Source: an uncultured archaeon (GTDB lineage: Archaea; Nanohalarchaeota; Nanosalinia; Nanosalinales; Nanosalinaceae). Taken from it: a stretch of DNA of 64,000 nucleotides. A program made the position numbers and the translations under genes. Below, one piece after another: positions 976 to 41,676 of this stretch. The notes below the pieces were generated by a model. It saw only the letters and a program-made list of their open reading frames with translations. It was not told where the DNA came from and did not search any database. The stretch covers positions 28,335-92,334 of the forward strand of contig CAZSAB010000003.1 of the NCBI GenBank assembly GCA_964604885.1. The letters run 5' to 3'. Position 1 is the stretch's first letter. Each line of letters begins with the position of its first letter.

Positions 976-1722
976 ATGGACAGAGAAGAAATAAGAAATA
1001 AAGCACTGGAGAGAACACGGAAAGAGATAGAGGAGACTGATAGGGTTCAGTTGATGGTCAAGGCGGTTAAGAGTCTTGATGAAGTCAAGAATTCTCAGAG
1101 AAACGAGATAGAGGCTTTCCGTGACTGGTACTCTCTGCACTTCCCTGAGTTTGAAAGAGAGATTGAGGACGACCAACATCTGATAAAGATTCTCTCAGGC
1201 GGTGTCAAGAAACAAAACTTGGATTCCTTTAAACAGTTGGCTGAAAACTCTACAGGAATGCAGGTTTCAGGTGAAGACTCTGATATTCTCGAAGAATTTG
1301 TGGATGCCTTGAAGTCTCAGCAAGATATTGTAGAGAAGCTTGAGGAATATATTAGGGATATTGCGAAGGAGGAAATGCATAACACGTCGGTGCTTCTAGG
1401 ACCTATATTGGCAGCAAGAATTGTAAATTTAGCTGGAGGACTAGAAGACTTAGCTAAAAAACCTGCTTCCACTGTACAGATGTTGGGAGCTGAAAAAGCA
1501 CTTTTCCGTCATTTGAGAAAAGGAGGAAATCCTCCAAAACATGGAATACTCTTCGAACATGACTTTGTAAGCCCATTGCATCCGGATCAGAGGGGAAAGA
1601 TGGCGCGGTTCATCGCAAACAAGACGGTTATGGCGGCAAGGATAGATCAGTATGGTGACAAGGATAAAGGAGAGGAACTTAAAGAAGAATGCAGACAAAA
1701 ATTTGAAGAATTGATAGAATAG
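976..1722 (+). CDS. nop5: Nop5/Nop56 family C/D box sRNP protein (short form)
   Basis: WYSLHFPE, LAKKPASTVQMLGAEKALFRHL and PKHG motifs of the Nop domain. Confidence 0.93.
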   Translation: MDREEIRNKALERTRKEIEETDRVQLMVKAVKSLDEVKNSQRNEIEAFRDWYSLHFPEFEREIEDDQHLIKILSGGVKKQNLDSFKQLAENSTGMQVSGEDSDILEEFVDALKSQQDIVEKLEEYIRDIAKEEMHNTSVLLGPILAARIVNLAGGLEDLAKKPASTVQMLGAEKALFRHLRKGGNPPKHGILFEHDFVSPLHPDQRGKMARFIANKTVMAARIDQYGDKDKGEELKEECRQKFEELIE

Positions 1723-3545: not shown

Positions 3546-4211
3546 ATGGAAGAAATTCAGCCGGGGATCTACAGAGGGAATGGAAATCTCTATACACATA
3601 ATTCAAATCCTGGAAAGAAAGTCTATGGAGAAGGATTATATGATAGAGAGGAAAAGGAGTTCAGGGCCTGGCACGGCAACAGGTCGAAGGCAGCGGCCGC
3701 AGTGTTGAATGGAATTGATATAGAGCTAGATCAGGATGATGAAGTTCTGTATCTTGGAGCGGCGTCAGGAACAACTGTGTCTCACTTCTCAGATATCTTG
3801 GAAGAAGGCTTTATTTACGCCGTCGAATACTCAGATACTGTAATTAGGGATCTAGTGGAACTGGCTGAAAAAAGGGACAACATAGCTCCGATACTGGGAG
3901 ATGCAAGAAATCCGGACGAATACAGTGATCTAGTGGAAGGAAGAGTGGATATTATTTTTCAGGATATATCGCAAAGTGACCAACCTGAGATTTTCCTTAA
4001 AAACAGTGAAAAGTTCCTTAAAAAAGGCGGTATAGGGCTTTTGGCAGTTAAGGCTCACTCTATATCAACTTCTAGGAACGAGGAAGAAGTATTTCAAGAA
4101 GTAAAAGAAAAATTAGTGGGAAAATTTGATTTAATCAGTGAGGCAAAGCTTGAGCCTTACGAGAAAAACCACTTATTTCTTAAACTTCGATTCAAAGGTG
4201 GAGAAAATTGA
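3546..4211 (+). CDS. flpA: Fibrillarin-like rRNA/tRNA 2'-O-methyltransferase
   Basis: RSKAAAA, VLYLGAASGTTVSHFSD, NIAPILGDA and QDISQ motifs. Confidence 0.96.
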   Translation: MEEIQPGIYRGNGNLYTHNSNPGKKVYGEGLYDREEKEFRAWHGNRSKAAAAVLNGIDIELDQDDEVLYLGAASGTTVSHFSDILEEGFIYAVEYSDTVIRDLVELAEKRDNIAPILGDARNPDEYSDLVEGRVDIIFQDISQSDQPEIFLKNSEKFLKKGGIGLLAVKAHSISTSRNEEEVFQEVKEKLVGKFDLISEAKLEPYEKNHLFLKLRFKGGEN

Positions 4212-27810: not shown

Positions 27811-28992
27811 ATGAACACAGAGAAAATCAGGGAGGACTTTCCAGTATTCCAAGAAAGAGAGAACTTGGTCTATTTGGATAACGCAGCTACTAGCCAAAAA
27901 CCCGGGCAGGTAATACAGGCAATTCAGAACTTCTACCAAAAAAATAATTCTAATGTGGGTAGAGGGCTTTACGACCTGGCTAATGATTCGACGCAGGAGT
28001 ATAAGAAGGCTAGGAGAGTGGTTGCGGATTTTATCGGGGCTTCAAGCTCTGAGATAGTCTTTGTCAGGAATACGACAGAGGCTGAGAACCTGCTAGCTCA
28101 CTCGCTGGATTTTGAAGGCAATGTTGTTCTCAGCGAAATGGCTCATCACAGCGAACAGCTTCCTTGGAGGAGGAAAGCAGAGCGGGAAGGGGACGAAATT
28201 AGTTATTTGGAAACTGTAGATGGTAGAATTTCTCCGGATTCAGTTCAGAAAAAGATAACAGAAGACACAGGCCTTGTCGCAGTATCTCATATTTCAAATG
28301 TTTTTGGTGCAGAAAATCCTGTGAAAGAGATTGTGGAAATTGCTCATAAAAAGAATGCAATGGTTGTATTGGATGCTGCTCAGAGCAGTCCACATATGTC
28401 AATAGATGCGAGGGAGTTAGATGTTGATTTCCTCTGCTTCTCTGGACATAAGATGCTTGGTCCATCAAGTATTGGAGTACTTTATGGCAAAAGAGAACTG
28501 CTTCAGGATATGAAACCGTATCAGGTTGGTGGAGGAATGATTAAGTCCGTAAAGCAAGATTCAATTGATTATGAGGCTGCTCCGGAAAAATTTGAAGCAG
28601 GTACAGAAAATGTTGCAGGTGCTGTGGGACTCGCGGCTGCGATAGAATATTTGGAGGAAGTCGGTCTAGATCAAATCTACGCTCACGATAAGCATTTAGC
28701 TGAAATGGTGATTGAAAGTCTCAAGGGTATCAAAGGAGTTGATGTCCTTTCTCCTGAAGTTGCAAGCCTGGTTTCTTTCACTGCTGACTGGGCGCATCCG
28801 CATGACATAGCAGAAGTTTTGAATCAGCATGGAGTTGCTGTAAGGGCAGGCAACCATTGTGCTCAGCCACAGATGGCGGAACTTGGCATAACCGGTACTA
28901 CTCGGGTAAGTCCTTACCTGTATAACACTGAGGAAGATGTGAAGAAATTTTTGGAAGCGGTTAGAGAGGCCAAAGATGCTTTTGATACTTGA
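27811..28992 (+). CDS. sufS: Cysteine desulfurase SufS
   Basis: YLDNAATSQKP, DAAQS, FSGHKMLGP (PLP Lys) and RAGNHCAQP (catalytic Cys). Confidence 0.96.
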   Translation: MNTEKIREDFPVFQERENLVYLDNAATSQKPGQVIQAIQNFYQKNNSNVGRGLYDLANDSTQEYKKARRVVADFIGASSSEIVFVRNTTEAENLLAHSLDFEGNVVLSEMAHHSEQLPWRRKAEREGDEISYLETVDGRISPDSVQKKITEDTGLVAVSHISNVFGAENPVKEIVEIAHKKNAMVVLDAAQSSPHMSIDARELDVDFLCFSGHKMLGPSSIGVLYGKRELLQDMKPYQVGGGMIKSVKQDSIDYEAAPEKFEAGTENVAGAVGLAAAIEYLEEVGLDQIYAHDKHLAEMVIESLKGIKGVDVLSPEVASLVSFTADWAHPHDIAEVLNQHGVAVRAGNHCAQPQMAELGITGTTRVSPYLYNTEEDVKKFLEAVREAKDAFDT

Positions 28993-36185: not shown

Positions 36186-39100
36186 TTATCCTATCTTCCA
36201 ATGCGGGTTCTTTTCGTCTTTTATCTTTACTATTTCTTCCAGCACTGATTTTTCTCCTTCTGAAAGCAAATCTTCTAACTCTTGGAGTCTTTTATGATCT
36301 CTCTGTGGTACGTCTGTGAGCATGACTTGGCTTTTTTCCAGATCCCTGCCTATCGTAGGGCCTTGAATTGAAGCAGCTACTTGGCTTCCTCTTTCTGCTT
36401 CCTCTATTTTCTCGTGTTCTTCTTGGATTGATTTTAGTGTGCCTATTTTTTCTCCATTTTCGTCCATTAGAGTGCATCCTGGAGTGAGTACCCCTTCGAG
36501 TACTTTTACTCCAATTACTGCCGGGTCGTTCTTTCTGAATACGTTATCTGGCATTGCTTGTATCTTTGCTGGTCTCGTGACTGCTTTCAAGGCTTTTTCT
36601 CTCTGTTCTTCTTGAAGTTCTCTCTGCCAGATGTTGTAGTTGTCGATAATCTCGTAGATCACGTCGCTTGAGAAGACAGGTATGTCTTTTTCTTGATCTA
36701 TTTCTGCAGCTTGATCTGTCATTCCTGTGTTAAATGACAATACTGATCTGTACTCCGGTTCCTCATTTTGGACTTCAATTAAATCGCCTTTTGTGACTTT
36801 TCCGACTTCTGCCTTCTGTGCAGGTATTTCCGATTTTTCAACTTCTCGCATCATTGCTTCCAGAGAGCCAAGTGAGTCGGCTTTGACTACTACTCCTTCT
36901 TTCATCGTTTGGAACTCTTTGGTCTCCAGTTCTTCTCTGACTTCTTGTTTGGCCTCTTCCAGCTCTTCTTCACTAGCTGTTCGGATCGGTGAACCGGAGA
37001 TGACTCCTTCAAGGTCTTTGCCCGATATTTTTACTCCTGCCGCTGGCGTTATTTCATCTACTTCCTGGTATTGTTTGTCAAGCCGGATCTCTTCCAGAGG
37101 CCTTGGTTCCAGAAGTGCTCTTATATCCGTCACCTTCAACCCATCGCTTGTTCCGTATACAAGTTTGTCTTCTTTCCTAGCCTTTCCATCGTAGATTATG
37201 GCGTTGATTGTTGTACCCAGGCCTTTCTGCTGAGTTACTTCTAGAACTGTCCCCTTGCCTATTCCTTCATGGACTTCCAGTTTGTCAGCCAGGTAGTTCT
37301 GAGAAAGTCCTGAGAGCACCATCAACAGTTCTGGCATTCCCTCGCCTGTAACAGCTGATGTAGGCACCATAGCAACCTTTTCCTGGAAGCTGTCAATCCT
37401 GTCGAACCTGTCGGCCACTATGTCGTATTTGTTGAGCTCTCCCATTAGCTCGTATATCTTTTCGTCAAGTTTTTCCTTCACTTTATCCGACTGAGCTTTG
37501 ATATTTCTGGTGAAGCACTCGTCACCGGTCGTCCATCCCGGAAGTCTATCGATCTTGTTCAATGCGACGACAAACGGAGTATTGGACTGCTTAAGTATCT
37601 TGATAGCCTCTTCAGTCTGAGGCTGCACTCCTTCCTCTATGTCAATCACGAGTACTGCTATGTCTGATATACTTCCCCCTCTCTTTCTCAGAGATGAGAA
37701 GGCTGCGTGGCCTGGAGTATCGATGAACAACAGGCCGGGAATCGACAGGTCAGTTTCAAGGAGGTCCAGAAGGTCTCCACAGACATCTTCAACTGTCTGA
37801 AGCGGTACCTCGGTGGCCCCGATCATCTGTGTGATGCCGCCAGCCTCACTCCCCACAATCCTCGACTCCCTGATCTCATCCAGGATCGTGGTATTGTGGA
37901 CGACAATATCTTCTGCTATGAACGTTTCTGCTTCTGTCGTGAAGTCGTAGACTGTGCCGCCCTCATTTTCTCTTATATCGCCTACTTCAATGAACTTGAG
38001 GTCAGACTCTGCTATCTTCTCAAGTTTCTGAAGTTTCTCTGCCCTGTCTTCTCTCCATTTTTCCAGTATATTTTCTCCTCTCTGTGTTATCTGTATCTTT
38101 TCATCTGTTCTATCTATAAAATCCTGACTTTCCAGTGAGAGAAGATGGTTAAGCAGTCTTGGATGATCTATGCTTTCTTCTCCGTATATCTCTTCCCTTC
38201 TGCATGACTCCCTCTTCAGTCTCTCAAGTATATCTGTTTTTTCATCTTTGTTCAGTTTGAACTCAGGACTATCTCTCGCTTCATTAATCTTCTTCACGAA
38301 TTCTTTGAGGTAAGCCTTTGAGACTCTGTCGTACTCCTCATATCTTCTCTGGTATGGAATATTGATTTCTGTATGGCTTGCCCCTGCTTCCTGCCTTGAT
38401 TCCTTGACCTCACTCCCTTTGACAGGTGTTTGGCCGGTTACAGGATTTCTATTCGAATTTTCTCTGTGTTTCTGGAATCTCTCCTTCTTTTCAGGATGTC
38501 TGAAGCCTATTTGTGTAAATTTTTCCAGGTTTTCCTTACCGGTGATATATATAGTGTGGTATTCTTCGTCCTGTGAGGCATACGCTGATATTCCGAACTG
38601 TTTAAGCACGGTTTTCAGAGAATCTATCATCTCACTGCTTGCTGAAGTAGCTTGAACGCCGCCTTTCTTGTTTACATAGCCATCTGCATCGAAGTAGCCA
38701 GATATAAGGTTGGCTAGGATGTTTTTCGGCAGTCTCTGTGCGTAATTACTCAGTTTGATTGATTGAGATTTTTGCTCTATCGGGAAGTCGAACAGTATCT
38801 CGAAGAACTTGGAAAGCCTCTTACCGCATTTAACGTAGACTTCGTCGACCTCTTCTTCATAAGTATTAACTTGTGTCTCCACTCCTGCAGCACTCTCTAT
38901 CTTTCCCTTGAACTCAGTTCTAAGTACTTCTGAATTATTGTAAAGGTTTCTGGCTTCTCTGCTTCCATCTCCCAGCATAATTCCAACTGAATAGGCCAGG
39001 TCTTCAAACTCGCTTTCTGTAGACGGAAGCTCCATCCTCTTGCTGGTTGAACCTGCTCTCTGCTTCAAAGTAGACTGCTTGAAGCTTACTATATTTTCGT

Positions 39101-39749
39101 AAGCCTCTTTTAAATCAATGCCTTTGTTCCGGCATATAGCCACTATGTCCTGAAGCCTGAACCTGTTATTATTCCGGCAGTCTCTTAGATGGTTTGTCAA
39201 GAGCTTTTCACTGATTTTTTCTCCATGCATCTTTAGTTCTTCGGAGAAATCAGGAGTGGTCAAACACAATATTCTCTCACTTTCTGACAAGATTTCCAGA
39301 GTATCCTGCTTCAATTCATTCAAACTTTTCTCATCTTTAGGCAACTTCTCTGGAACAGCAACCATATCAGACTCAACAAGCTCATCTGCAGGTTTAAACT
39401 TCAGCTCCGAACCTTCCACAGTTAGAAAAGGATGCTCAGGTGTAACCTCTACCTCGGAGCCATCTGATAGTTCAAATTCGAGCAGTTTGTCTTTCTCAAG
39501 TTTCCATATATTCTCTGCCCTACAGCTTACTATCTCTCCATCTTCCACACCCAAAAGTTCCGGGCCTTTTTCCAGGCTGTAGACCTCTCCTTCTTCATCT
39601 TCCAATCTTTCTCCATCCGCTCTATATTCCTCAAATAGTTTCTCTGCTTTTATTGTAGAGCCGTCAGAAAGCTGAATCTGCGTATCTGGAGCTACACATT
39701 TTCCAGAATCGACGTGCCCAAGTACAGATAGAATGGGTTGGCGCGGCAT
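36186..39749 (-). CDS. infB: Translation initiation factor aIF5B/IF2, intein-containing
   Basis: GHVDSGK|intein|TT, GGITQMIGA, FIDTPGHAAF and NKID motifs; exteins about 585 aa. Confidence 0.97.
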   Translation of the reverse strand: MPRQPILSVLGHVDSGKCVAPDTQIQLSDGSTIKAEKLFEEYRADGERLEDEEGEVYSLEKGPELLGVEDGEIVSCRAENIWKLEKDKLLEFELSDGSEVEVTPEHPFLTVEGSELKFKPADELVESDMVAVPEKLPKDEKSLNELKQDTLEILSESERILCLTTPDFSEELKMHGEKISEKLLTNHLRDCRNNNRFRLQDIVAICRNKGIDLKEAYENIVSFKQSTLKQRAGSTSKRMELPSTESEFEDLAYSVGIMLGDGSREARNLYNNSEVLRTEFKGKIESAAGVETQVNTYEEEVDEVYVKCGKRLSKFFEILFDFPIEQKSQSIKLSNYAQRLPKNILANLISGYFDADGYVNKKGGVQATSASSEMIDSLKTVLKQFGISAYASQDEEYHTIYITGKENLEKFTQIGFRHPEKKERFQKHRENSNRNPVTGQTPVKGSEVKESRQEAGASHTEINIPYQRRYEEYDRVSKAYLKEFVKKINEARDSPEFKLNKDEKTDILERLKRESCRREEIYGEESIDHPRLLNHLLSLESQDFIDRTDEKIQITQRGENILEKWREDRAEKLQKLEKIAESDLKFIEVGDIRENEGGTVYDFTTEAETFIAEDIVVHNTTILDEIRESRIVGSEAGGITQMIGATEVPLQTVEDVCGDLLDLLETDLSIPGLLFIDTPGHAAFSSLRKRGGSISDIAVLVIDIEEGVQPQTEEAIKILKQSNTPFVVALNKIDRLPGWTTGDECFTRNIKAQSDKVKEKLDEKIYELMGELNKYDIVADRFDRIDSFQEKVAMVPTSAVTGEGMPELLMVLSGLSQNYLADKLEVHEGIGKGTVLEVTQQKGLGTTINAIIYDGKARKEDKLVYGTSDGLKVTDIRALLEPRPLEEIRLDKQYQEVDEITPAAGVKISGKDLEGVISGSPIRTASEEELEEAKQEVREELETKEFQTMKEGVVVKADSLGSLEAMMREVEKSEIPAQKAEVGKVTKGDLIEVQNEEPEYRSVLSFNTGMTDQAAEIDQEKDIPVFSSDVIYEIIDNYNIWQRELQEEQREKALKAVTRPAKIQAMPDNVFRKNDPAVIGVKVLEGVLTPGCTLMDENGEKIGTLKSIQEEHEKIEEAERGSQVAASIQGPTIGRDLEKSQVMLTDVPQRDHKRLQELEDLLSEGEKSVLEEIVKIKDEKNPHWKIG
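37893..39698 (-). mobile_element. Intein (602 aa) with LAGLIDADG homing endonuclease in the IF2 P-loop
   Basis: Starts CVAPDT, block B VTPEHPF, LAGLIDADG blocks GIMLGDG and GYFDADG, ends VYDF...VVHN followed by Thr. Confidence 0.95.
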
Positions 39750-39833
39750 CTACACTCACCTTAAACTTGTTGGCCGCTTGAAAAGTTAAATACTTCGCTT
39801 GTCAAAATGGAGAAAAAAATGGACTAGTCCGGA

Positions 39834-39986
39834 TTACTCTTCTTTCCTGTATTCGTGGCTTCTACCTTTCTCGTGGTTCTTTTCACATTTCGAGGAGCAG
39901 AAGTAGAGTTTCTCTCCTGAGTTCAAGACAAGCATTTTGCCTCCTGTCTTGCCCAGTTCTTCGCCGCAATAATTGCACTCTGCCAT
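39834..39986 (-). CDS. rpl24e: 50S ribosomal protein L24e (not in ORF track)
   Basis: Manual translation MAECNYCGEELGKTGGKMLVLNSGEKLYFCSSKCEKN... Confidence 0.93.
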   Translation of the reverse strand: MAECNYCGEELGKTGGKMLVLNSGEKLYFCSSKCEKNHEKGRSHEYRKEE

Positions 39987-39992
39987 TTTGAG

Positions 39993-40169
39993 TCACCCTT
40001 CCATCTCCGTTTCTTTGATGTGGACGATGTCATCTTCTCTGATGGGTCCTCGAGAGTTTCTGACTAGAATCTTTCCTTCTTCGTTGCCCTCGATGACTCT
40101 GCACCGTATTTTTCGGACTGTGCGGTGTCCTGTGTCGTCCATTACTTCGATTACTTTTGCTGCTGGCAT
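39993..40169 (-). CDS. rps28e: 30S ribosomal protein S28e (not in ORF track)
   Basis: Manual translation MPAAKVIEVMDDTGHRTVRKIRCRVIEG...VRNSRGPIREDDI. Confidence 0.92.
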   Translation of the reverse strand: MPAAKVIEVMDDTGHRTVRKIRCRVIEGNEEGKILVRNSRGPIREDDIVHIKETEMEG

Positions 40170-40187
40170 TAGATTTTCACCTGGTTT

Positions 40188-40571
40188 TTATTCTTCTTCG
40201 TCTTCTTCAGCGTCCAGAAGTTCTGCTGTTTTCTGCTGTACGTCTTCGATTTCGTCTTCTGCGTTTCCTGTCTTGGTTACAGCGATTGCTGCACTCTGGA
40301 CTGTGATTCCTGCTGCAAGACCAAGCTCCTCTTTGTCAGGGACGAAAGTGTAACTGATGTCTTTCTCGTCTGCAAGTGGAGGAATGTGCATCACAATTTC
40401 TTCTGGAGAAACATCGCCTGCGATAACTACTAGTTCTGCCTCGTTTCTTTCGATCGCCTTCGTTACTTCGTTTGTACCGATCCTTACTTCGCCGGTGTCT
40501 GCAGCGGTTTCGATTGCGTTATAGGTTTTCTCTCCTAAAGATTCGTTTGTTTCAAATTTCTGGTATGCCAT
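40188..40571 (-). CDS. rpl7ae: Ribosomal / sRNP protein L7Ae
   Basis: IGTNEVTKAIERNEAELVVIAGDVSPEEIVMH; ATG at 40571 with GGTGA SD. Confidence 0.96.
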   Translation of the reverse strand: MAYQKFETNESLGEKTYNAIETAADTGEVRIGTNEVTKAIERNEAELVVIAGDVSPEEIVMHIPPLADEKDISYTFVPDKEELGLAAGITVQSAAIAVTKTGNAEDEIEDVQQKTAELLDAEEDEEE

Positions 40572-40580
40572 TTTTGTATT

Positions 40581-40643
40581 CACCTTTCACAAAACCTTGG
40601 ATCATCAAGGTATATTCGTAAAACTGGCGAGAACTTTTTTATA
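40581..40643 (-). promoter_or_regulatory. rpl7ae TATA box and candidate K-turn leader covering the SD
   Basis: TATAAAAAA at 40643-40635; leader ACCUU-GAU-GAUC...GUGA-AAGGU(G) at 40611-40581. Confidence 0.55.
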
Positions 40644-40672
40644 CCATCAAACTAAGTGGCCTGATTAATAAA

Positions 40673-40900
40673 TTATTGTCGTTCTGGATCAAATTCTGCT
40701 AGTTTTTCGTTTTCTATCCAGTCGAGTTCTTCTTCTATTTCTCGAATTATGAGGTTGAGTTCGTGTCTCTGGCTGTCTGTGCCTGCATGTTTGTTTTCCA
40801 GATGTTTGATGAGTTCGTCTTTCAGTAGCTGAATTAGTTTCTGTTCGGAGTTTGCGTCTCCGTATTCTTCTAGAACTTCGATTACTTCTTGTCTTTCCAT
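40673..40900 (-). CDS. Hypothetical acidic helical protein
   Basis: ORF with host-like composition. Confidence 0.6.
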   Translation of the reverse strand: MERQEVIEVLEEYGDANSEQKLIQLLKDELIKHLENKHAGTDSQRHELNLIIREIEEELDWIENEKLAEFDPERQ

Positions 40901-40926
40901 GGAAAACTTTTTTTCTCAGAATTCTT

Positions 40927-41676
40927 TTAGTTTTGTTTCAATGTTTCCTCAATGTTGTTTCTCCGTGTCTGGAATTCCTGAATTACCTGTCCTGCCTCCT
41001 TGACTGTCTCCTGATCTTCTTCTACCCCGACTACAAGGTGCTCCATTATGTCGTCCATTTCCGTAGTCAGGTAATGCATCTCTTCCACCATTTCCCTGAT
41101 ATCTTCAAAGCTCTCCACGTCTAGGAAGAGTGGCTGTTCTTCTCTTCTCTGCTTTTTTTCTTCCTCCTCTCTTTCCTGATTTATTTCCTTGACGTCTTCT
41201 TTAATGCTTCTGTTGCTTCTACCCTTCTCTATGGAACTTATATGATCTTCTATCTCATCCTTCAGTTCTTTGACCTCGTCTCTTCCTCTTTCATCAGGGA
41301 CTGGCTGAGAACTCCTGGTTTGAGTTGTATTGATGGATTCTTCGGCTTCTGTTTCCTGAACCTGTTCCTTTATAGGTTCTTCCTCTTGTGGTTCAGGTTT
41401 CTGTTCTTCGACGTTCTGCTGGACCTGTGACTGAAGATTTTCGAGGTCGTTCTGCATCCCATCGACTTCAGGAGTTTCATTTTCATCTTGCTGTAAGTCC
41501 TGATCAGGTTCTGGCTGGTCAAATCCTTCTAGATCGCCCACAGAATCTTTCTCTTGTTCTTTTGATTCCTCATCAACTACTTCTTCAGGTTCATCTTTAC
41601 TTTCGTTGACCAGTTGCTTGATTTCCTCCATGTTTTCCTCAAGCTTTTCCTTGTCATCGCCGCCGATATTAAACAT
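40927..41676 (-). CDS. Hypothetical highly acidic coiled-coil protein
   Basis: E/Q/D-rich low complexity followed by a C-terminal PLFLDVESF helical domain. Confidence 0.7.
   Translation of the reverse strand: MFNIGGDDKEKLEENMEEIKQLVNESKDEPEEVVDEESKEQEKDSVGDLEGFDQPEPDQDLQQDENETPEVDGMQNDLENLQSQVQQNVEEQKPEPQEEEPIKEQVQETEAEESINTTQTRSSQPVPDERGRDEVKELKDEIEDHISSIEKGRSNRSIKEDVKEINQEREEEEKKQRREEQPLFLDVESFEDIREMVEEMHYLTTEMDDIMEHLVVGVEEDQETVKEAGQVIQEFQTRRNNIEETLKQN

Follow-up and report, generated by a model that had tools for sequence, protein, structure and literature searches.

Does the leader of the gene for ribosomal protein L7Ae in a nanohaloarchaeon simply carry the protein-binding kink-turn (K-turn) described for other archaea, or does a second hairpin that competes with it make a two-state switch of the leader? 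The question is raised by a 64,000-nt stretch of DNA from an uncultured member of the Nanosalinaceae (hereafter the window; positions 28,335 to 92,334 of contig CAZSAB010000003.1, assembly GCA_964604885.1), in which rpl7ae lies on the minus strand and an initial annotation had proposed an L7Ae-sensing RNA switch over its Shine-Dalgarno (SD) sequence. Our analysis indicates that the K-turn of the rpl7ae leader is very probably an L7Ae autoregulatory leader, and as such ordinary in kind. That the leader is also a two-state switch, in which a hairpin formed with a decoy copy of the SD competes with the K-turn, is the reading that we favor, with a probability of roughly 0.55; comparative and thermodynamic support makes such a switch plausible.

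The minus strand from 40611 to 40581 reads ACCUU-GAU-GA-UC-CAAGGUUUU-GU-GA-AAGGU-G and fits the K-turn rules. This is exactly the sequence that had been quoted, and both of the pairings claimed for it near the rpl7ae AUG were reproduced. The K-turn signature is complete, with a Watson-Crick canonical (C) helix, a 3-nt bulge and tandem G.A/A.G positions; additionally, -1b:-1n is U:A, 3b:3n is U.U and the SD lies in the C helix. Specifically, the C helix of the first fold consists of A40611-U40582, C40610-G40583, C40609-G40584, U40608-A40585 and U40607-A40586, the bulge of G40606, A40605 and U40604, and the non-canonical (NC) helix of G40603.A40587 and A40602.G40588 (the tandem sheared positions), U40601.U40589 and C40600-G40590, closed by a terminal loop of 9 nt (40599-40591). 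The second fold pairs A40611-G40606 with C40599-U40594 (ACCUUG/CAAGGU, 6 bp) around the loop AUGAUC. The two are mutually exclusive, as ACCUU pairs either with 40586-40582 or with 40598-40594. According to the initial annotation the K-turn fold buries the GGUG of the SD; the pairing of AAGGU does cover the GGU of GGUGA, but not the whole GGUG. The spacing from G40581 to the AUG (40571-40569) is 9 nt. As a separate observation, RNAfold pairs the SD bases GGUG (40581-40584) with UACC (40560-40563, codons 3-4, GCA UAC CAG, Ala-Tyr-Gln); this pairing is predicted in the window (probability ~0.4) and in most relatives, and it may merely reflect the conserved M-A-Y-Q codons.

A single sequence of this type is weak evidence, since loosely defined K-turns (xAUGA...GA, C stem of 4 bp or more) abound: the descriptor has 698 matches in the 1.29-Mb genome, which corresponds to about 1% for a 40-nt leader and is too unspecific to show an L7Ae regulon genome-wide. 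The pattern GATGA-N3-20-GARAGGT has three occurrences in the window. The strict pattern CCTYGATGA-N3-20-GARAGGT is present in 45 of the 50 genomes of the family, essentially as a single copy and at the l7ae leader, with only three extra matches and 6 matches for a reversed-pattern control in the family genomes; its occurrence once per genome, at that same place, argues that the element is not due to chance. Three of the five family genomes without the strict pattern carry a shorter ACC-GAU-GA...GA-GGU, and Nanosalinarum J07AB56 is devoid of the motif. L7Ae itself was located in 60 of 61 related genomes; the nearest public records are metagenome-assembled genomes of Candidatus Nanohalobium, and the family also includes Nanosalina, SG9 and M3_22. 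Concerning the sister families of the order, CC-GAU-GA...GA-GG is found in most genomes. In one of these families the motif is a minimal K-loop, with three bases in the loop, while another (f3: L036, L040, L047 and L041) extends the NC arm by 4-6 G+C-rich bp (e.g., GCCCG/CGGGC or CCCUC/GAGGG), a stem whose sequence varies between genera. This extension would stabilize the K-turn fold, which is the opposite design to the decoy of the Nanosalinaceae. Similar motifs in l7ae leaders are visible in Iainarchaeum, Micrarchaeia, Aenigmatarchaeota, Heimdallarchaeota, Hadarchaeota and others. As judged from these leaders, the K-turn is conserved family- and order-wide and is not a chance feature. The remark that such a control had not been seen described for DPANN archaea holds in so far as no literature description was found; K-turn-like l7ae leaders are nevertheless visible in many DPANN lineages, so that the K-turn itself is ordinary.

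Two further searches gave no addition to this picture. Among the matches listed in a metagenome pattern scan, at least 120, none adjoins an L7Ae gene, and an Rfam scan of 39500-41500 at E ≤ 10 returned nothing on the leader, only weak unrelated matches. A box C/D-like pair lying on an SD was also noticed in the leader of the SepF gene (PF04472; contig C5:6947-6998, plus strand, outside the window), with the sequence CUGAUGA-AGUUUAA-CUGA-GAGGU. It was rejected as a regulatory element, as none of the six family matches retrieved, two of which come from the same genus, is a sepF leader, and it is probably a chance occurrence.

K-turn leaders of l7ae form a described class. For Sulfolobus, Daume et al. 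2017 used RNA immunoprecipitation sequencing (RIP-seq) together with reporters and showed L7Ae to bind a K-turn of its own 5' untranslated region and to repress translation, and candidate Kt-b/Kt-n strands were given for most of 121 archaeal l7ae leaders (PMC5539422). Six l7ae leaders were characterized by Huang, Ashraf and Lilley 2019, which share the GAU bulge and have a -1b:-1n pair other than C:G; that of A. fulgidus was unstructured without protein, and binding of L7Ae folded a standard K-turn in which the SD joins the C helix (PMC6298567). The motif of the window sits where the published element sits, in keeping with the autoregulation through K-turn leaders that the earlier proposal had invoked for archaea (PMC5539422, PMC6298567). 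It shares with this class the gene, the position between TATA box and AUG, the GAU bulge, the tandem G.A/A.G, a -1b:-1n pair other than C:G, and an SD that lies in the C helix and is occluded on protein binding (the design of Figure 6 in PMC6298567). The L7Ae recognition helix is conserved as well: the product of rpl7ae matches L7Ae in the PDB (E = 4.5e-38), relatives' L7Ae begins at the same AUG, and GTNEVTKAIER aligns with GTNETTKAVER of solved L7Ae structures, keeping N-E-x-x-K-x-x-x-R, of which N, E, K and R are the K-turn recognition residues (PMC6298567). By this alignment, the L7Ae of the window keeps an intact K-turn-binding helix.

There are also differences from the published leaders. 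The published free leader is unstructured, whereas the free leader of the window is predicted to form a stable decoy hairpin, and the terminal loop, which has no role in the published K-turn model, here holds the SD copy CAAGGU. The lineage differs too, as the Nanohaloarchaeota are mesophilic salt-in DPANN archaea; they were not found by name in the 2017 supplement, where the alignment uses locus tags, so that their absence is unproven. Among other K-turn RNAs, the box C/D small RNAs (sRNAs) are bound by the same protein, and AUGAUC...GUGA contains their K-turn core (L2-L3 AU, G.A, A.G, U.U). In comparison with box C (RUGAUGA) and box D (CUGA), 4b:4n is inverted in the window motif, being C-G and not G-C, and the motif lies in an mRNA leader with no guide and no C'/D' pair. 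Identity as a box C/D sRNA was rejected, with only 13 nt between GAUGA and GUGA and no Rfam CD-box match at E ≤ 10. In bacterial ribosomal-protein leaders and riboswitch platforms two pairings share one strand and the ligand stabilizes the one that sequesters the SD. The candidate switch of the window differs from them in being archaeal, in having a K-turn-binding protein as its ligand, and in using a K-turn, not an rRNA mimic or a metabolite pocket, as its sensor. Bacterial S15 autoregulation has been mentioned beside the archaeal leaders (PMC6298567). Finally, yeast L30e is also an L7Ae-family protein that represses itself via a K-turn near the transcript start (cited in PMC6298567), but it is eukaryotic and acts on splicing and translation, the SD is not involved, and no decoy hairpin has been described for it.

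The case for a second state lies in the energetics and the recurrence of the decoy. For the leader of the window, the second fold is predicted at -6.7 kcal/mol (RNAfold) and the C stem alone at -3.1 kcal/mol, and in the protein-free ensemble the hairpin dominates (P = 0.99, vs. 0.006-0.011 for the C stem). The claim that the second fold and the K-turn exclude each other is supported. When the loop was shuffled, the median P of the C stem was 0.96; without the decoy, therefore, the nearest-neighbor model predicts that the 5-bp C stem closes the SD unaided at 37°C. Across free leaders, the hairpins of anti-SD and decoy are predicted at -5.5 to -9.2 kcal/mol. The decoy sequence CCAAGG is kept in 26 distinct leaders from 11 genera, whereas the 5' flank varies freely, as do the two spacers, one ahead of G4n and one between SD and AUG. 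In the alignment of these decoy-bearing leaders CCUU is invariant in 25 of 26, the leading A varies, and of the 25 in which both 4b and 4n are occupied, 24 have C-G there. The informative case is the remaining leader (G036), where the anti-SD is CCUC and decoy and SD are both GAGG. Elsewhere, other decoys stand at differing positions, namely CCGAGGC, UCAAGG(GC), CACAGAGGC, CAGAGGC (with CCUC), GAGGUU, AAAGGU, CGAGG and a GAGG that overlaps G2n.

A decoy was scored when a helix of at least 4 bp covered all four anti-SD bases, and the expectation was taken from composition-preserving shuffles of the loop. On this measure, a decoy is found in 30 of the 38 distinct CCUY leaders (6.2 expected) and, at the genus level, in 14 of 18 (3.4 expected). 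As far as these sequences allow a reading, most genera of the family have either retained a decoy or formed one anew. The assumption-free ensemble test points in the same direction, with a median P of the C stem of 0.064 in real leaders vs. 0.66 with shuffled loops; the mean genus rank of this value against shuffled loops is 0.24 (Wilcoxon p = 1.3e-5, with 20 genera taken as independent). In the model, natural loops would hence suppress spontaneous SD occlusion relative to shuffled ones. In the L7Ae tree, itself poorly resolved, leaders of the CCAAGG type stand at scattered places, which suggests an old feature with several replacements. The CC-type leaders of this family and of the sister families, with a C stem of 2-3 bp, have no decoy, with one exception; such short-stem leaders would fit the logic of a decoy, but they are confounded with phylogeny.

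Where transcription starts bears on which of these pairings can form. Measured from the first T of TATAAAA, the distance to the ATG in first-ATG long ORFs (open reading frames) of the window's genome shows a sharp peak at 27-32 nt (mode 30), the signature of leaderless genes. In most family leaders the TATA box stands 32-35 nt from the CC of the motif, and those with a longer spacing bear an extra upstream hairpin. On this calibration, the K-turn probably starts only a few nucleotides from the mRNA 5' end (Table 1). The stretch between TATA box and predicted start (40617-40635, minus strand) is ~65% pyrimidine in the l7ae promoters of the family and looks complementary to the purine-rich SD; shuffled controls are no less so.

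A two-state switch at this leader would operate as follows. The l7ae transcript would start 0-5 nt upstream of A40611, and during transcription the 5' decoy hairpin ACCUUG/CAAGGU would form first, leaving the SD single-stranded and l7ae translated. This ON state would be the default, the competing hairpin probably keeping l7ae on until L7Ae is in excess. Accumulated free L7Ae would then capture the K-turn conformer, the C helix would form and the SD would be occluded, as in the published class. L7Ae would have to outcompete the decoy hairpin, the melting of which is predicted to cost 6.7 kcal/mol, or ~3.6 kcal/mol when set against the C stem, and repression would need a higher L7Ae concentration, which would set a threshold. 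The block would act on l7ae alone. Whether the decoy sets the threshold of free L7Ae, replacing in the mesophilic, multi-molar-salt cytoplasm of the Nanosalinaceae the unstructured free leader of thermophiles, is in our view an even bet, based on the model energies.

Several observations weigh against a second state. Covariation in the alignment columns of the 26 distinct leaders is not significant for the decoy hairpin (109-128 of 500 shuffles were as good) or for the K-turn fold (33 of 500). Little covariation is to be expected, since the 16S rRNA dictates the SD, the SD in turn constrains the anti-SD and the anti-SD constrains the decoy, and the columns are nearly invariant; the 3' end of the 16S rRNA was not found in the assembly, and we take the anti-SD sequence of the organism's 16S rRNA to be the one generally known for archaea. 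RNAalifold, applied to the same 26-leader alignment, returned the stem of the K-turn fold and not the decoy hairpin. The shuffle tests count genera as independent although CCAAGG is largely inherited, and the nearest-neighbor energies (37°C, 1 M NaCl) model neither K-turns, nor protein, nor multi-molar KCl. In some decoy-bearing leaders (g7, g16, g3 and g8) the C stem still has a predicted share of roughly one half, and the full decoy is absent in eight CCUY leaders and in all three CC-type leaders of the family. The transcription start, moreover, is a prediction from promoter spacing. These points leave room for an ordinary single-state OFF switch, in which a free leader that is in effect open is closed by L7Ae through the K-turn, and the hairpin, incidental or serving, for instance, as a 5'-terminal stem against 5'-3' exonucleases, has no share in sensing L7Ae. 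The arrangement of K-turn and SD would by itself fit the published mechanism, several family lineages and the sister families do without a decoy, and a hairpin 0-5 nt from the predicted 5' end is at a plausible place for a protective stem-loop. A loop without a role, however, would not keep CCAAGG while its flanks drift, nor would it swap in other SD-like decoys elsewhere, and predicted SD occlusion is much lower with natural loops than with shuffled ones. In addition, a purely protective hairpin need not use the anti-SD strand. We consider a single-state switch possible but rather unlikely.

The remaining explanations assign the repeat or the SD pairing to something else. The inverted repeat CCTTG-N6-CAAGG could be a DNA operator for a dimeric transcription factor, as it overlaps the predicted start, a classic position for archaeal repressors, and is conserved in many genera. 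The half-sites, though, are asymmetric in places (CCTTG/CGAGG, with a U.G wobble, in three genomes of two genera), the 3' half moves and the spacing varies, with loops of ~3 to 15 nt among the decoy hairpins; such wobbles and variable loops argue for an RNA and not a DNA feature. With GATGA...GA-RAGG occurring order-wide without the palindrome as well, an operator appears very improbable. We give hardly any credence to a transcription attenuator or premature terminator made of the hairpin and a U-run (CAAGGUUUU). In its favor, U4-U5 stands behind the hairpin in the window's own genus and in a single further genome. Most of the genera, though, carry just UU there or lack U altogether; as archaeal terminators go, a U4 is short, and the terminator scan did not flag the site; the logic would also be inverted, with low L7Ae leading to the hairpin, termination and an inactive gene. 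Barely credible, too, is that the SD is truly sequestered by a long hairpin that includes 20 more upstream bases (UCGCC/GGUGA plus UUUUACGAA/UUUGUGAAA, -21.8 kcal/mol). Its z-score of -3.9 speaks for it, and 24 of 45 relatives have comparable pyrimidine-rich tracts upstream, but the upstream arm falls between the TATA box and the predicted start and would consequently not be transcribed from this promoter, and it is no more complementary to the SD than composition-matched shuffles are (median rank 0.70; 0 of 42 leaders at ≤ 0.1). A two-state switch with an SD-decoy hairpin stays the explanation that we prefer.

The genes downstream set the reach of such a switch. The initial annotation had it control rpl7ae-rps28e-rpl24e as a unit, a claim with which the SDs disagree. 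Each of rps28e, rpl24e and the gene after them, aIF5B, has its own GGUGA 6-8 nt ahead of the AUG, so that blocking the SD of l7ae would not in itself shut off rps28e and rpl24e; an effect on these two genes via mRNA stability is conceivable. Oligo-T is a known archaeal termination signal, on which the likely end of the operon in Table 1 is based.

Table 1. Features of the rpl7ae leader and operon (positions in the window; all on the minus strand).
Feature	Position	Strand	Basis or remark
Likely operon terminator: palindrome GGACTAGTCC plus a trailing T7, immediately downstream of the rpl24e stop codon	39812..39831	-	Inference from oligo-T signal
rpl24e, with own SD (GGTGActcaaaATG) overlapping the rps28e stop codon	39834..39986	-	Pfam PF01246
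rps28e, with own SD (aaaccaGGTGAaaatctaATG)	39993..40169	-	Pfam PF01200
rpl7ae coding sequence, 127 aa, AUG 40571-40569	40188..40571	-	Pfam PF01248, E = 8e-27
AAGGUGA: C-helix 3' strand AAGGU (40586-40582) together with the SD GGUGA (40584-40580) that it overlaps	40580..40586	-	
G4n U3n G2n A1n: non-bulged NC-helix strand, box-D-like GUGA	40587..40590	-	GA invariant
CAAGGU: decoy copy of the SD inside the K-turn terminal loop (40591-40599), 3' arm of the second fold	40594..40599	-	
G1b A2b of the tandem sheared G.A/A.G	40602..40603	-	Invariant in relatives
GAU: three-nucleotide K-turn bulge L1-L3	40604..40606	-	Invariant across family and order
ACCUU: 5' arm of the C helix in the K-turn (bulged strand), serving as the anti-SD; with G40606 also 5' arm of the second fold	40607..40611	-	
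Predicted transcription start, most likely ~40613	40611..40616	-	TATA-to-ATG calibration and conserved spacing
TATA box TATAAAAA, inside conserved GGTATAAAAAAGTTC (40645-40631)	40636..40643	-	Same box in most family genomes

Some features of the surrounding genes are also worth recording. The aIF5B/IF2 gene (36186-39749, minus strand) encodes 1187 aa, a length owed to an intein with a LAGLIDADG homing-endonuclease domain; Pfam places Intein_splicing at residues 66-619 and LAGLIDADG_3 at 345-413, the insertion being near the N-terminus of the GTPase domain. Upstream of rpl7ae, a 75-aa ORF (40673-40900, minus strand) without a Pfam match ends 30 nt before the l7ae TATA box. The codons of its C-terminal ...EFDPE(Q/R)Q are recognizable just upstream of l7ae in many family genomes, which marks it as a conserved syntenic small protein. 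Between this ORF and rps2 lies an ORF of 249 aa (40927-41676, minus strand), extremely acidic, rich in E/Q/D and also without a Pfam match. Concerning other partners of L7Ae, the genes for Nop5 (976-1722, plus strand) and fibrillarin (3546-4211, plus strand) are both in the window, with ~1.8 kb holding other ORFs between them, so that the core proteins for box C/D methylation are present in the organism. The leader of nop5, a gene tightly coupled to the preceding ORF, shows no K-turn.

L7Ae is common to the ribosome, the box C/D and H/ACA ribonucleoproteins and RNase P, and its free pool therefore needs metering. If the decoy proved irrelevant, the leader would be merely one more member of a known autoregulatory class. 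The published mechanism explains how l7ae is turned OFF, and its ON state relies on a leader too unstable to fold alone. Should the decoy act as proposed, its design is simple and portable, and it could serve the widely used synthetic L7Ae/K-turn switches. For the family itself, the Nanosalinaceae would represent a natural test of how the ON state can be secured, and the threshold tuned, when the stem that occludes the SD is stable without protein.

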